Below are positions 58,071-63,443 of a stretch of 64,000 bases of DNA, piece after piece. Where the stretch lies: positions 65,059 through 129,058 of the forward strand of contig CAKPLY010000003.1 in assembly GCA_934167825.1 (NCBI GenBank), in the 5' to 3' direction. Source of the DNA: an uncultured Bacilli bacterium (GTDB lineage: Bacteria; Bacillota_I; Bacilli_A; RF39; UBA660). The notes below the pieces were generated by a model. It worked only from the letters and a program-made list of their open reading frames with translations. It did not search any database and was not told the DNA's origin. Each line of letters begins with the position of its first letter. Positions within the stretch are counted from its first letter, which is position 1. The position numbers and the translations under genes are program-made.

Positions 58071-59759
58071 ATGAATAAACAACATATAGATACTAAGGTT
58101 TTTGCTTTAGGAGGCCTTGGTGAAGTTGGAAAGAACATGTACTGTGTTATGCATGATGATGAAATTATTATTGTAGACTCAGGTGTTATGTTTCCAGAAG
58201 ATGAACTTTTAGGAATAGATTATGTTATTCCTGATTATACTTTTTTAAAACAAAATGAAAGTAAAATTAAAGCGTTACTTATTACGCATGGGCATGAAGA
58301 TCATATTGGAGGTATACCTTTTTTAGTACAAAGTGTTAATATACCTGTTATTTATGCTCCAAATCAAGCAAAAGAATTAATAGATAAAAAATTATTAGAA
58401 AGAAATATTAACTATAAAAAAATTATTATATATAATGAAGAAACTAAGATTAAAACAAAATATTTTAATGTAGAATTTTTTAGAACAACACACTCTATAC
58501 CGGATTCTCATGGTATTTCTATTGGTACTCCAAATGGTGTTATTGTAATGACAGGTGACTTTAAGTTTGACCTTACCCCTATTGGTCCTATGGCTAATTT
58601 GCATAAAATGGCACGGATTGGAGAAAAGGGTGTTAAACTTTTAATGAGTGATTCTACTAATGCATTGGTACCTGGACACTCTATTAGTGAGTCTGTAGTT
58701 GATGAGAATTTGAATGAAATATTCACTACAAATACTAATAGTAGAATTATTATTGCTACTTTTGCTTCTAATGTATATAGACTTAAGCATATTATTGAAA
58801 CTTGTAGGAAGCATAAAAGAAAGGTAGTACTTTTTGGAAGAAGTATGGATACTTCGGTGGATATTGCTATTAAATGTGGATATATTAAGGATAAGAATAT
58901 TATTATATCTAGTGAGGTTGCAAATAATATGAAACCTAGTGAGGTATGTTTGCTTTGTACTGGTAGTCAGGGAGAACCTCTTGCGGCTTTATCTAGAATT
59001 GCTAATGGAAGTCATAAACAAATTAAACTTATGCCTAATGATATTGTAGTATTTTCGTCTTCTCCTATTCCTGGGAATGCTATGTCTGTTGCAAAGACTA
59101 TTAATAAACTTTATTTAAAGGGAGTTAAGGTATATACTAATGCAATGACTGAGATACACTCTTCAGGACACGCTAATATGGAAGAGTTGAAGTTGATGCT
59201 TAGACTTATTAAGCCAAAGTTTTTTGCACCGTATCATGGGGAATATAGAATGTTAAAATCTCATACTGATTTAGCAGTACTTTGTGGTATGCCTAAGGAT
59301 AATACTTTTATATTAGAAAATGGAGATGTTCTTACGTTATCTAAGTTTAATGTTAAAAGAAGTGGTAAGGTTACTGCAGGGGATGTGTATGTAGATGGCT
59401 CTAGAATTGGAGATGTTGGTAGTGTCGTTATAAATGATAGAAAACTTATGTCTACTAATGGTGTGCTTGCAGTTATTGCGAATATTGATATTAGTAATAA
59501 GAAATTACTTGCTACTCCTATTATTACTACTAGAGGTTATATTCTAGTTAATGAAAATGAAGAATTAATTAATATGATTCAAAATAAGGCTAAGGGTATT
59601 ATTAATAATGAATTAAGTAAGAAGAATTTTAATTTTAATGAGATGAAAAGTGATTTAATTACTGAACTTATGCCTATACTAGATGCTAAGACTGGTAGGG
59701 TGCCTATTATACTTCCTATTATTATGGATGTTAAGGATCATGAAGAAAAGAACTCATAG
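58071..59759 (+). CDS. rnj: Ribonuclease J
   Basis: ALGGLGEVGKNMY N-terminus, beta-lactamase motif THGHEDHIGG, beta-CASP and C-terminal domains. ATG 58071 with an AGGAG RBS at 58061-58065. Confidence 0.93.
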   Translation: MNKQHIDTKVFALGGLGEVGKNMYCVMHDDEIIIVDSGVMFPEDELLGIDYVIPDYTFLKQNESKIKALLITHGHEDHIGGIPFLVQSVNIPVIYAPNQAKELIDKKLLERNINYKKIIIYNEETKIKTKYFNVEFFRTTHSIPDSHGISIGTPNGVIVMTGDFKFDLTPIGPMANLHKMARIGEKGVKLLMSDSTNALVPGHSISESVVDENLNEIFTTNTNSRIIIATFASNVYRLKHIIETCRKHKRKVVLFGRSMDTSVDIAIKCGYIKDKNIIISSEVANNMKPSEVCLLCTGSQGEPLAALSRIANGSHKQIKLMPNDIVVFSSSPIPGNAMSVAKTINKLYLKGVKVYTNAMTEIHSSGHANMEELKLMLRLIKPKFFAPYHGEYRMLKSHTDLAVLCGMPKDNTFILENGDVLTLSKFNVKRSGKVTAGDVYVDGSRIGDVGSVVINDRKLMSTNGVLAVIANIDISNKKLLATPIITTRGYILVNENEELINMIQNKAKGIINNELSKKNFNFNEMKSDLITELMPILDAKTGRVPIILPIIMDVKDHEEKNS

Positions 59760-59971
59760 TTTGGGTTCTTTTTGTTGTACTTTATATTGTTTTTTTCATA
59801 AATATTTTGTAAGTTTAGCCAAAAATCTGTTGGCATATTAAAGATATAGTCTAAGGCATTAGCAAGTTGTAAAGATATATTTACTATTTCTTCAATAAAT
59901 TTATTTATATATCCAGGCTCAAGCCTAGTTTTTATTGCAATGTCTTCTTTTATCATTTTTCTATCTTGCAA
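59738..59971 (-). pseudogene. HigA/XRE-type antitoxin-like remnant
   Basis: C-terminal MPTDFWLNLQNIYE is the typical HigA-family ending. The frame is open back to 60040 but has no ATG/GTG. The track start is a TTG and the HTH portion looks degenerate. The 3' end overlaps convergent rnj by 22 nt. Confidence 0.4.
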
Positions 59972-60049
59972 AATTTCTTTTATCGTTTTTATGGGATAAA
60001 TGATTAATTTTAATATTAAACTATTCTTTTTTTTGTCATATTATTACCC

Positions 60050-61384
60050 CTATTTATCAAATTCTTCATGAAGTTTATTGATATAGTAACTTCTCATATT
60101 ATTTAATATTTCATTTATTACTTCAAAAGATACTTCCCTTTCTGTTTTGTTTGTGGTATCAAATATATATAAATTTATACTTTCTTCTTTAGATATTTTT
60201 TTTATATTAAGTAAAGCTTTATTATATTCATTTATGTTTTCTTCATTTAAAAATGTTCTTTTTTCTAATGATAAATTTGCTTTGTAATCTCTTTTTAATG
60301 ATGTTAAAGAGTCAGTATATGTTCCTATTATAATATTTATTTTCTCTTTTATAAGTGGGATATATTCCTTTTTATAGTCTTCATATTCAAGAAGTGACAT
60401 ATCAGCTTTGTTGTATAACCTATCTATCCAAATTAAACGATCTAATAATGACCTATCTATTATTATAATATCAATATTTTTTTCTATTTCATTATTTAAA
60501 TCTTTTAGAACGTATTTTGGTATTTCTACGTTTACTATTTTTTTATATTCACTTTTTAATCTAGGATAGATTATTTCTTTGTATCTTTTCGAGGTAGTAA
60601 ATTCTTCCATAGTAGTAATTTTAAATCCTACTTTTTTAAAGAAGTCATATAAATTATTCATAAGAGTAGTTTTACCTGTTCTTGGAGTACCGGTAAATTC
60701 TATTACATATGGTTTATGATTGCTTAGTACTTTTATCATTTTATATATCTCTTGTTTTTTATAGTGAATAGTTAGTAATTCTTGGTACTCACTTTGGTTA
60801 TCTTTAAAAATTCTTCTTTCTAAAGAATCATGTTTGTCATCATTAAAAACATCATCAATTAGCAATTTTAGTCTTGTAAACATTGTATAATTACTATCTT
60901 CATTATGTATTAGACTATTATATATTTCAGTATAGTACCATTTTTGTTTGTCGTATCCTCTTTTGAAAGCACTAAAATCTTTTTTTCCTTTAGTTTCAAA
61001 AATTATTCTTAAGTCTTCTAAATTACTTATTTTATCTGCACAAACTACTGCTTTATGTCTTAAATCTAAATCTTTTACTTCATTTATTGTTCTTGTTTTT
61101 CTTTCTTCCCAACTTAAACTTTTGTCTTTTTCGGTGTCTCCAAGCACTAAAGATACTATGTCATCATTAAATTCTTTTAGTAGGTCTTCTTTGGTGTATT
61201 TTGTGTCTTCGATTACATCATGCAAGTATCCTGCAGAAATAACATTATCATCAAAGTTATATTCACTTATTATATCTGCGACATCAATTGGATGAATTAT
61301 CATTGGTTTATCTACAGTTGCTTTTCTTACTTGTCCCTTATGAGCATTAATTGCAAATAATTTTGCTTTTTCTTTAATATCCAT
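60050..61384 (-). CDS. Fusion protein: RelA/SpoT-type HD (alarmone-hydrolase-like) domain + P-loop nucleoside/nucleotide-kinase-like domain
   Basis: N-terminal AHKGQVRK...PMIIHPIDVA...AGYLHDVIEDT (SpoT-type HD signature). C-terminal Walker A GTPRTGKTT followed by a IIIDRSLLDR motif reminiscent of dNK-type kinases. Confidence 0.65.
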   Translation of the reverse strand: MDIKEKAKLFAINAHKGQVRKATVDKPMIIHPIDVADIISEYNFDDNVISAGYLHDVIEDTKYTKEDLLKEFNDDIVSLVLGDTEKDKSLSWEERKTRTINEVKDLDLRHKAVVCADKISNLEDLRIIFETKGKKDFSAFKRGYDKQKWYYTEIYNSLIHNEDSNYTMFTRLKLLIDDVFNDDKHDSLERRIFKDNQSEYQELLTIHYKKQEIYKMIKVLSNHKPYVIEFTGTPRTGKTTLMNNLYDFFKKVGFKITTMEEFTTSKRYKEIIYPRLKSEYKKIVNVEIPKYVLKDLNNEIEKNIDIIIIDRSLLDRLIWIDRLYNKADMSLLEYEDYKKEYIPLIKEKINIIIGTYTDSLTSLKRDYKANLSLEKRTFLNEENINEYNKALLNIKKISKEESINLYIFDTTNKTEREVSFEVINEILNNMRSYYINKLHEEFDK

Positions 61385-61477
61385 ATTATTACTACCTCTT
61401 TCTCATTTCAAATTTAAATTACAAAATATAAACTTTGGATTATTTATTTTATCGTACTTTCCCTTATTTTTACTATA

Positions 61478-62657: not shown

Positions 62658-62706
62658 AATATAATACCTCCACATTTCCTTTTGAAGATATTATATCATA
62701 AATATT

Positions 62707-63309
62707 TTAATTTTTAGAATTTTTTAAGTATTCTATAGCCATATCTAATGCTTTTCTTCTAGGGCTTAATTTTAACTTTTCTTTCATAGTTATTTCCGCT
62801 AATGTTTTACCATTCGGTAACTCAAAAATTTCATCAAAACCAAAGCCATTATTTCCTCTTACATCTAAACTTATTGTTCCATCTAAAGTATATTCAAATG
62901 TCTTATCAATTTCTTTTCCTTTAATTGCAATAACCGTTGTATAATGGCATTGTCTTTTGTCTTTAGGCACATTTTCTAACTTTTTTAATAGTTCTAAGTT
63001 TTTTGTATGGTCATCGGCATCCATCCACCTTGCAGTATATACTCCAGGGAAGCCATCTAAGGCATCAATAGATATACCTGAGTCGTCACCAATACAAATA
63101 TATTCTTCCCCAATCTCTTCATATAAACAATTTACTTTTTCTCTAGCGTTGTCATCAAAAGTCATTTGATTTTCGGTAACATTAATTTTTTTATTTAGCT
63201 TTTTTTCTATTTCTTTCATAGAAAGAATATCATAGTCACTAAATATTTCTTTGATTTCTTTTATTTTTCCACTATTATTACTTGCTACAACTAAAATTTT
63301 TTTATTCAT
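62707..63309 (-). CDS. rdgB: Non-canonical purine NTP pyrophosphatase (RdgB/HAM1)
   Basis: ILVVASNNSGKIKEIKEIF and GNNGFGFDEIF motifs. ATG 63309 lies 8 nt after GGAGG. Confidence 0.88.
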   Translation of the reverse strand: MNKKILVVASNNSGKIKEIKEIFSDYDILSMKEIEKKLNKKINVTENQMTFDDNAREKVNCLYEEIGEEYICIGDDSGISIDALDGFPGVYTARWMDADDHTKNLELLKKLENVPKDKRQCHYTTVIAIKGKEIDKTFEYTLDGTISLDVRGNNGFGFDEIFELPNGKTLAEITMKEKLKLSPRRKALDMAIEYLKNSKN

Positions 63310-63423
63310 ATTATTTTCCTCCATTAATTATTTTACTTATTTTGTGTTATTTTATTGCTCCAATTCGGCACTGATAATATTTATACATAAATACCTCCTT
63401 AACTTTAATATATCTTAAAAAGA

Positions 63424-63443
63424 GGAAATATTTTGTCTCTATT
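63424..63443. promoter_or_regulatory. Shared 20-nt motif, copy B (GGAAATATTTTGTCTCTATT)
   Basis: 19/20 identical to 62040-62059. It lies upstream of rdgB and of a 13-codon mini-ORF with a strong RBS. Confidence 0.45.

Follow-up and report, generated by a model that had tools for sequence, protein, structure and literature searches.

A RelA/SpoT-type HD hydrolase fused to a P-loop kinase-like domain in a candidate WYL-regulated operon of an uncultured Bacilli bacterium

Five co-directional genes around an HD-kinase fusion

Within a 64,000-nt stretch of contig CAKPLY010000003.1 from an uncultured Bacilli bacterium (hereafter the window), five consecutive open reading frames (ORFs) are located on the minus strand between positions 59738 and 63324, separated from their neighbours by gaps of 31–93 bp; all five were found where a first annotation made from the letters alone (the sequence-only reading) had placed them. 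Starting from the upstream end, they encode a 205-aa RdgB/Ham1 non-canonical purine NTP pyrophosphatase (62707–63324), a 206-aa regulator with a helix-turn-helix (HTH) and a WYL domain (62055–62675), a 175-aa phosphatase of the HAD superfamily, NT5C-like (61478–62005), a 444-aa protein that joins an HD hydrolase to a P-loop kinase-like domain (60050–61384), and a 77-aa product with a sub-threshold HigA/Xre-like match (59738–59971). The GC content of this region is about 22–29%, uniform and the same as in the remainder of the window.

The 444-aa protein is the core of the locus. Pfam matches to HD_4 and AAA_28, an AlphaFold2 (AF2) model and Foldseek searches divide it into an HD hydrolase core (residues c. 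1–140; 60965–61384, minus strand), a conserved helical linker (residues c. 141–220; 60725–60964, minus strand) and a P-loop kinase-like domain with the fold of deoxynucleoside and thymidylate kinases (dNK/TMPK) (residues c. 221–444; 60053–60724, minus strand). The AF2 model reached a predicted local distance difference test (pLDDT) of 91.2 and a predicted TM-score (pTM) of 0.88. For comparison we used 54 loci from the one-genome-per-species set of GTDB (L001–L054), one for each species found to carry the fusion, and a further set of loci (L055–L063). The HD-kinase fusion was confirmed as real, intact and uncharacterised, as the sequence-only reading had held: its relatives bear no NCBI name other than "HD domain-containing protein", and the searchable literature, including the RelA/SpoT homologue (RSH) classification and recent papers on small alarmone hydrolases (SAHs), holds no mention of a kinase-fused RSH hydrolase.

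The hydrolase half

Pfam placed HD_4 (PF13328) at residues 10–126 with 48.9 bits against a cut-off of 27.2, and the NCBIfam model TIGR00691 (spoT_relA) matched the N-terminal part of the protein with E=7e-21. In a sequence search of the PDB the HD half was clearly akin to Rel, RelH and Mesh1, with 45% identity to Listeria monocytogenes Lmo0812 (E=1.8e-37), and its motifs aligned with those of Rel and Lmo0812. Foldseek, which the sequence-only reading had proposed for both halves, gave Lmo0812 with a target TM-score (TMt) of 0.87–0.91, RelH with 0.83–0.86 and Mesh1 with 0.75–0.78. Taken together, residues c. 1–160 are alike to the SAHs Lmo0812 (PDB 4YF1) and Corynebacterium glutamicum RelH (7QOC/7QOD), with 26–45% identity, a TMt of 0.83–0.91 and all catalytic motifs. 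The segments HKGQVRK, HPIDVA and YLHDVIEDT, from which a RelA/SpoT-type HD signature had been recognised at the outset, are present and lie on invariant columns of an alignment of 31 orthologues spanning 48–74% identity. Far from being lost, the Rel-type catalytic residues R20, K21, H31, P32, H55, D56, E59, D60, T61, D117 and N121 are fixed in 31 of the 31 sequences. By sequence, motifs and predicted fold, the HD half is an RSH-type hydrolase of the MixSpo/RelH-like SAH group. RelH, which is grouped with Lmo0812, hydrolyses pppGpp, ppGpp and pGpp (PMC10434055), and by analogy with the SAHs the fusion would be expected to remove the 3'-pyrophosphate from (pp)pGpp in a Mn2+-dependent manner. SAHs are defined as HD-domain-only proteins (PMC3153485); the 444-aa protein differs from them in its conserved helical linker and the attached C-terminal P-loop kinase of 220 aa, and in a sister clade also in an additional N-terminal classical HD domain.

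The kinase half

The C-terminal half was matched by AAA_28 (residues 228–334) with 30.8 bits against a cut-off of 27, and distant relatives gave sub-threshold matches to the dNK and Thymidylate_kin models. Its topology in the AF2 model (b1–P-loop–a1–b2–two helices–b3–two helices–b4–lid–b5) follows the dNK/TMPK layout, and Foldseek retrieved the deoxyadenosine kinases (dAKs) of Giardia and Mycoplasma mycoides, human deoxycytidine kinase (dCK), Drosophila dNK and TMPKs with a TMt of 0.57–0.66 and E values of about 1e-5 to 1e-4. A profile search of the PDB with this half found the deoxynucleoside kinase 8puu at E=1.6e-5, its DRS motif being aligned with the DRS of Giardia dAK, while the other profile matches reached the level of the P-loop only. 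With members of the dNK/TMPK family (Giardia dAK, 8PUU; M. mycoides dAK, 2JAS; human dCK, 1P60; yeast TMPK, 3TMK) the domain has in common the five-strand topology, the helical inserts and the lid as well as the Walker A motif, a D-R-S motif equivalent to ERS/DRY, and the lid arginines; it differs from them in its low identity (13–24%) and an unusual EEFTTS motif, and within its small kinase family it is as a rule fused or duplicated. The arginine within the P-loop (GTPRTGKTT) is comparable to that of type I TMPKs.

Both segments of this half that the sequence-only reading had singled out (GTPRTGKTT and IIIDRSLLDR) are present and fall on invariant alignment columns. Across the 31 orthologues, Walker A (G232–T240), E261 with T263-T264-S265, D310-R311-S312, D315-R316, D366-Y367, E374 and R376 do not vary, and R365 of the lid is invariant in A3 and nearly so in A1. 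Such a number of unchanging polar positions in the acceptor region speaks for a substrate that is real and specific. The P-loop is thus intact and not the inactive relic that had been considered, and the C-terminal half is, by sequence and model, a dNK/TMPK-fold P-loop kinase-like domain with intact motifs that looks catalytically competent; the invariant catalytic motifs of both halves suggest that this applies to each of them. An assignment of AAA_28 to NadR or nicotinamide riboside kinases, considered in view of the NADPH phosphatase activity of Mesh1, was set aside, since no NadR was among the PDB profile matches and NRK1 matched at E=0.65 over the P-loop only, dNK and TMPK being clearly closer.

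Distribution and architectures of the fusion

The fusion architecture is abundant in metagenomes: clustering at 90% identity gave about 1,500 clusters, hardly any of which bears a name. The 54 species carrying it are almost all labelled uncultured gut Bacilli, "Tenericutes" or Firmicutes CAG, and their genomes include a complete chromosome of 1.46 Mb. In the sole complete chromosome (L049:6001–7338, CP091726.1) the fusion gene is broken across three frames, which may reflect long-read indels or a pseudogene. Between the two clades, the HD core is 65% identical, the linker 41% and the kinase 44%, and residues of the linker are strongly conserved in the 31-orthologue alignment.

In about 17 species at c. 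50% identity, a classical HD domain (PF01966, YedJ-like) precedes the fusion in frame as an N-terminal extension of about 205 aa, leading to a triple fusion of about 652 aa that is itself abundant (e.g., L020:5383–7338; also L017, L021, L024, L025, L027, L028, L030, L033, L036, L037, L043, L047, L048, and L051). In other species only the in-frame tail of this extra domain ("KYMEVNGIM") remains ahead of the start codon, suggesting repeated loss of the domain. With 440 representatives in a set of 1.84 billion proteins, the kinase family as a whole is small; it occurs after HD_4, after classical HD, stand-alone, as a tandem duplicate, and after N-terminal domains that are not recognised, and it is recurrently joined to phosphohydrolases, namely HD_4, classical HD, and both in the triple HD–HD_4–kinase proteins. 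In P0271, P0278, P0281 and P0283 the same kinase stands behind other N-terminal domains, which Pfam does not recognise, those of P0281 and P0283 beginning in an ExExK-like manner; a CYTH identity for the latter was not borne out, as no Pfam CYTH match appeared even at E<=1.

Partner genes

The HTH+WYL annotation of the 206-aa protein held, with HTH_11 at residues 15–66 and WYL at residues 139–203 in Pfam. The protein ends three residues past the WYL match and lacks a WCX domain, its orthologues measure 200–206 aa, and its PDB matches, to WYL domains from PafBC and from AAA-ATPase proteins, were weak. The identification of the 205-aa protein as RdgB was borne out as well: Ham1p_like (PF01725) matched over the full length with 165 bits, and two NCBIfam XTP/dITP diphosphatase models reached E=1e-44, remaining under their equivalog cut-offs (152 vs. 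234 and 134 vs. 145). According to other gene callers and the call in L055, the start of rdgB is probably at 63309, giving 200 aa.

For the 175-aa protein, labelled an NT5C-like HAD phosphatase in the sequence-only reading, the HAD part stood while the NT5C label proved weak. Its alignment-based AF2 model (pLDDT 92) shows a HAD fold, with HAD structures matched by Foldseek at E values of about 5e-6, and in its small, lineage-restricted family (208 unnamed homologues of about 171 aa) the residues of HAD motifs I–IV are invariant (D9/D11, T84-K85, K118, D131) or nearly so (D132). The Pfam NT5C model, however, matched at E=0.007 with 16.7 bits against a cut-off of 24.8, and some few orthologues carry a precomputed match to PF06941. 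Among the fold matches, human 5'(3')-deoxyribonucleotidase (dNT-1) ranked second and AphA nucleotidases were near the top, while generic HAD proteins scored equally.

The 77-aa ORF matched TIGR02607 (HigA) with 23.5 bits against a cut-off of 47.7, over profile positions 23–76 of 81 and therefore N-terminally incomplete; it had no Pfam match and no counterpart in the 54 other-species loci. The term "HigA-like remnant" used for it initially is plausible as to "remnant", with a likeness to HigA that is weak, sub-threshold and partnerless. A HigA/HigB toxin-antitoxin pair was rejected: apart from the incomplete match, there is no HigB partner, and the gap of 78 bp to the fusion is too short for a partner ORF.

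A conserved motif linked to the WYL gene

The exact 16-mer AGACAAAATATTTCCT occurs twice in the window, both times on the minus strand. Copy 1 (62039–62054), a putative WYL operator/promoter, is part of a promoter-like site (AAGACA-16-TATAAT, 62055–62028) that lies between the WYL gene and the HAD gene, and copy 2 (63423–63438), a putative operator/promoter of rdgB-WYL, precedes rdgB by about 100 bp. Three sites in the 64 kb fit the strict motif GAC-N3-5-TATTTCCT, compared with 0.14 expected, and two of them are at the promoters of the operon. In close relatives the spacer between WYL and fusion bears a conserved repeat; among the related loci, all 11 of 11 intergenic motif matches are placed directly after a WYL gene, 21–67 bp before the fusion or HAD gene. 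This placement in the window and in relatives provides comparative evidence for a WYL-linked promoter/operator, and the two motif and promoter sites suggest that rdgB-WYL and HAD-fusion, the latter possibly with the 77-aa ORF, are transcribed as separate units in the window. Control of the cargo genes by the WYL protein is thus supported in the close clade only, through this conserved, putative cis motif.

Three further observations concern the motif. The broken fusion gene of L049 still has the WYL-linked motif upstream of it (5951–5965). A 15/16 copy of the 16-mer (AGACAAAATATTTCCC) is found at 41468–41483 (minus strand) inside a 502-aa ORF (40517–42025), and a looser match at 32041–32055 (plus strand) is antisense within the ORF 32001–32555; each may be due to chance or be an extra site. 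Between copy 2 and rdgB there is also a 13-codon mini-ORF (MYKYYQCRIGAIK, 63347–63388, minus strand) with a strong AAGGAGG ribosome-binding site, either a leader peptide or a chance occurrence.

Like the regulators of the winged wHTH-WYL-WCX type (DriD, PafBC, CapW, BrxR, SiwR), the window protein combines an HTH with a WYL domain, is encoded beside its presumed targets and is accompanied by a conserved cis element. In contrast to them, it has only 206 aa without WCX, and its cargo belongs to nucleotide metabolism and not to a known defence or classical DNA-damage regulon. In published accounts, characterised WYL regulators sense ssDNA (single-stranded DNA) or nucleotides and control adjacent genes (PMC11662680, PMC11804915, PMC10853764, PMC10693628, PMC11880434).

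Neighbourhoods of the fusion in other species

A tblastn search of the window proteins against the 54 loci, together with clustering of all neighbouring ORFs, showed that the five-gene set, which the sequence-only reading had treated as one module, is not a conserved unit; apart from a core of WYL and fusion in one clade it is species-specific. A gene for RdgB was near the fusion in none of the 54 species loci, its adjacency being specific to the species of the window, and the HAD gene was near it in three of 54. A WYL gene was nearby in about ten, all but one of which belong to the clade at >=70% identity: six loci of the closest clade have it immediately before the fusion and another three have it at a greater distance upstream, while L049 has a weak match upstream. 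Where the HAD gene is near the fusion, two large, uncharacterised extra genes intervene (L010:1743–5995; L014:1688–5973), coding for a fusion protein of 764–775 aa with a HAD-IIB-like N-terminus and a 653-aa PfkB ribokinase-like/SIS-like protein.

The recurrent neighbours of the fusion are genes of nucleotide and DNA hygiene, namely family-4-like uracil-DNA glycosylase (UDG; eight loci), MutT-like NUDIX, uracil phosphoribosyltransferase (UPRTase), PfkB ribokinase-like proteins and HAD phosphatases; the other neighbours across the loci are unrelated housekeeping genes. Homologues that were core genes in fixed housekeeping neighbourhoods would have spoken against the sequence-only reading; housekeeping neighbours were indeed found, but the neighbourhoods vary and are not fixed. 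In eight species the UDG-like gene is directly upstream of the triple fusion, the start of which it overlaps by about 35 nt in six (L020:4695–5417; L062:7328–8035), and in L062 a radical-SAM/DUF4130 pair precedes it. MutT-like NUDIX genes follow the fusion in L007 and L010. In one strain (L060:10217–17965) a conjugative-element segment with five TrbC/type IV secretion system pilin genes, a TraC-like gene and a TraG P-loop gene lies directly downstream of the triple fusion; at the same site the sister strains L059 and L061 have a U32 peptidase and GatCAB.

Defence or mobile origin

PADLOC, run on all window proteins as the sequence-only reading had suggested, returned matches for the WYL protein only, to generic WYL models (E=1.3e-23), and none for the fusion, the HAD protein, RdgB or the HigA-like ORF. 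Among the extra genes of the relatives it gave only a generic NUDIX match and a marginal match to Csx1 (E=0.006). The fusion and its kinase were absent from 50,697 phage records and 72,556 plasmids (tblastn) and from IMG/VR, where the only relatives were stand-alone ones of the SAH-type HD half. On these grounds, and with the housekeeping character of the flanks, we rejected both a defence system, which had been named as one alternative for this locus, and a mobile or viral origin.

Proposed function and alternative explanations

With middling confidence we propose a chromosomal, WYL-regulated operon for the maintenance of the nucleotide pool, with the bifunctional HD-kinase enzyme at its core. 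Of the two alternatives raised by the sequence-only reading, this favours nucleotide salvage and house-cleaning, in line with the nucleotide-hygiene neighbours, the housekeeping flanks and the lack of a defence signal. For the substrates, the ligand, the direction of regulation and the coupling of the two activities, we infer the following scheme. The HD half would strip the 3'-pyrophosphate, or a 3'- or 2'-phosphate, from nucleotides of the (pp)pGpp or (p)ppApp type with Mn2+, and the kinase half would phosphorylate a (deoxy)nucleoside or a nucleoside monophosphate (NMP) with ATP, so that both activities together might send nucleotides back to the usable pool. RdgB, for the clean-up of dITP and XTP, and the HAD nucleotidase would be accessory pool-sanitising enzymes recruited beside the fusion in the species of the window. 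Transcription of rdgB-WYL and of HAD-fusion would start from two separate promoters, and the HTH-WYL protein may bind the GAC-N4-5-TATTTCCT element overlapping the -35/spacer region of both; the operon would then be switched in response to a ligand that is a nucleic acid or a nucleotide, with ssDNA the most likely one, as in the case of DriD, PafBC and CapW.

Several observations weigh against this proposal. In Pfam the kinase half of the window protein matches neither dNK (PF01712) nor Thymidylate_kin (PF02223), only the generic AAA_28, and at 13–24% identity and a TMt of about 0.6 to its fold matches the kinase half is but remotely related to characterised kinases. Characterised SAHs are promiscuous, acting on (pp)pGpp, (p)ppApp and NADPH (PMC9765508). 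The two halves are not always coupled, as some distant homologues have one active site decayed and the other retained; in the distant fusions P0244, P0326, P0367 and P0381, HD/ED motifs or the P-loop have been lost. The link to WYL exists only in the clade at >= c. 65% identity, the distant clade being without WYL, and the motif could be a mere conserved promoter and not an operator. Finally, neither the 64-kb window nor some 550 kb from related loci contained a Rel/RSH paralogue, which is too little sequence to judge the ability to make (p)ppGpp.

The order of domains also brings to mind the long RSH proteins (Rel/SpoT), in which, as in the fusion, a homologous N-terminal hydrolase is followed by a helical linker and then by another domain for nucleotide phosphotransfer; the fusion differs in carrying a P-loop kinase in place of the synthetase of nucleotidyltransferase fold and in the lack of TGS/ACT domains. 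As a rival reading, the protein might be a Rel-like make-and-break enzyme, the kinase phosphorylating a ribose hydroxyl to yield a signalling or modified nucleotide and the HD half destroying this product under reciprocal regulation, which we consider unlikely. The kinase sits where long RSH proteins have their synthetase; the order hydrolase–linker–phosphotransferase mirrors the N-terminal region of Rel, and Foldseek alignments to the N-terminal domain of Rel cover 214–295 columns, beyond the HD core alone, though with a high root-mean-square deviation. The strong conservation of the linker and the pTM of 0.88, which suggests a fixed arrangement of the domains, would agree with this, as would the adjoining ligand-sensing WYL regulator and those distant lineages that have lost one active site, as RelA has lost its hydrolase (PMC3153485). 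However, the nearest folds are nucleoside kinases acting on the 5'-OH and NMP kinases, not 3'-OH kinases, adenosine 5'-phosphosulfate (APS) kinase matching over the P-loop only; no candidate gene for a receptor or effector is conserved nearby; and opposed activities without a regulatory domain would amount to a futile cycle. A full analogue of Rel, in which the kinase makes an undescribed signal (e.g., a 3'- or 2'-monophosphorylated purine nucleotide), the HD half degrades it, and WYL or an unlinked receptor reads it, appears improbable to us; if true, uncultured gut Bacilli with small genomes would possess a signalling axis of a new, alarmone-like kind.

Given that SAHs act as universal antitoxins to toxic small alarmone synthetases (toxSAS) and are common in phages (PMC7229694), and that an orphan SAH shields Xanthomonas from killing by Pseudomonas (PMC9765508), the HD half might instead detoxify (p)ppApp or (p)ppGpp stemming from toxSAS, secreted Tas1-like or phage MuF toxins or from phage attack, with the kinase restoring the ATP and GTP pools. 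There is little likelihood, in our view, of such a stress or conflict module: no toxSAS or defence gene adjoins the fusion in the loci examined, its neighbourhoods are housekeeping, it is absent from phages, plasmids and IMG/VR, and it is widely kept within its lineage (54 species genomes), unlike patchy defence genes. Induction of the module by attack through WYL, as by BrxR/CapW for defence systems, is similarly doubtful; WYL regulators often accompany defence systems (PMC9122601) and the window WYL matches the PADLOC WYL models, but half of the family is without WYL. An N-terminal HD phosphoesterase with a C-terminal P-loop kinase is likewise found in HD-Pnk of Runella slithyformis and in Deinococcus radiodurans DRB0098 (PMC6097658, PMC1997131), where the logic is similar, the 3'-phosphate being taken off and a 5'-phosphate put on. 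An end-healing enzyme of this kind, its HD half clearing 2',3'-cyclic or 3'-phosphates from RNA or DNA ends and its kinase acting on 5'-OH ends, could be brought in line with the repair-flavoured UDG-like neighbours in one clade and with WYL regulators being commonly responsive to DNA damage. We nevertheless regard it as highly improbable and rejected membership in the HD-Pnk family, the likeness being one of analogy only: DRB0098 combines PF01966 with AAA_33 and the fusion HD_4 with AAA_28, hhalign gave a 3% probability over the P-loop only, no polynucleotide kinase was among the PDB profile matches or the 50 fold matches listed, and no ligase gene is annotated next to the fusion in the window, L001–L054 or L055–L063. 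The dNK-type helical inserts would suit a small-molecule pocket, and the likely substrates of the fusion are mononucleotides and not polynucleotide ends. A last explanation, that the hydrolase alone is catalytic and the P-loop domain a regulatory nucleotide sensor tuning alarmone hydrolysis to NTP status, could draw on the better conservation of the HD core than of the kinase half between the clades (65% vs. 44%) and on some distant homologues without a P-loop that retain most HD motifs. Its chances are slim: beyond Walker A, the positions predicted to hold an acceptor and to catalyse the transfer (E261, TTS, DRS, D315-R316 and, in the lid, D366-Y367, E374 and R376) are invariant in the lineage, and the kinase also occurs on its own and in tandem.

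Returning to the proposed nucleotide-pool operon, the fusion at its core is a combination of two known enzyme kinds that is undescribed in the searchable literature, and it adds a third RSH-hydrolase architecture (a hydrolase joined to a P-loop kinase, in some cases with a further HD domain) to the single-domain SAHs and the long Rel/SpoT proteins, one that is abundant in gut metagenomes (more than 1,500 sequence clusters) and restricted to poorly known, uncultured Bacilli with small genomes. If both halves serve one nucleotide pool, it would provide a compact way of recycling alarmones or 3'-phosphorylated nucleotides in hosts that probably depend on salvage. The known cargo of WYL regulators would, if the proposal is true, widen beyond defence and the classical DNA-damage response, and the short WCX-less WYL protein with its 16-bp site offers a testable candidate pair of regulator and operator.

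Other features of the locus

At 59745–59773, a hairpin with a stem of 12 pairs followed by a T run is the sole terminator-like site in 59500–64000. It is placed between the operon and a convergent RNase J gene, in the overlap of the 3' end of the latter with the 77-aa ORF, and may terminate both units. On its own contig (L055) the operon is flanked by GatCAB, M23 peptidase and P-type ATPase genes on one side and by RNase J, phosphoglycerate kinase (PGK) and Spo0A genes on the other. A 110-aa "membrane" ORF at 63599–63931 (minus strand) turned out to belong to a P-type ATPase of 771 aa (L055:5471–7786), which leaves the window and whose C-terminal end the ORF forms, and a gene for an IS605 OrfB/TnpB (Cas12f-like) protein is located about 7 kb past the window end (L055:1–649).

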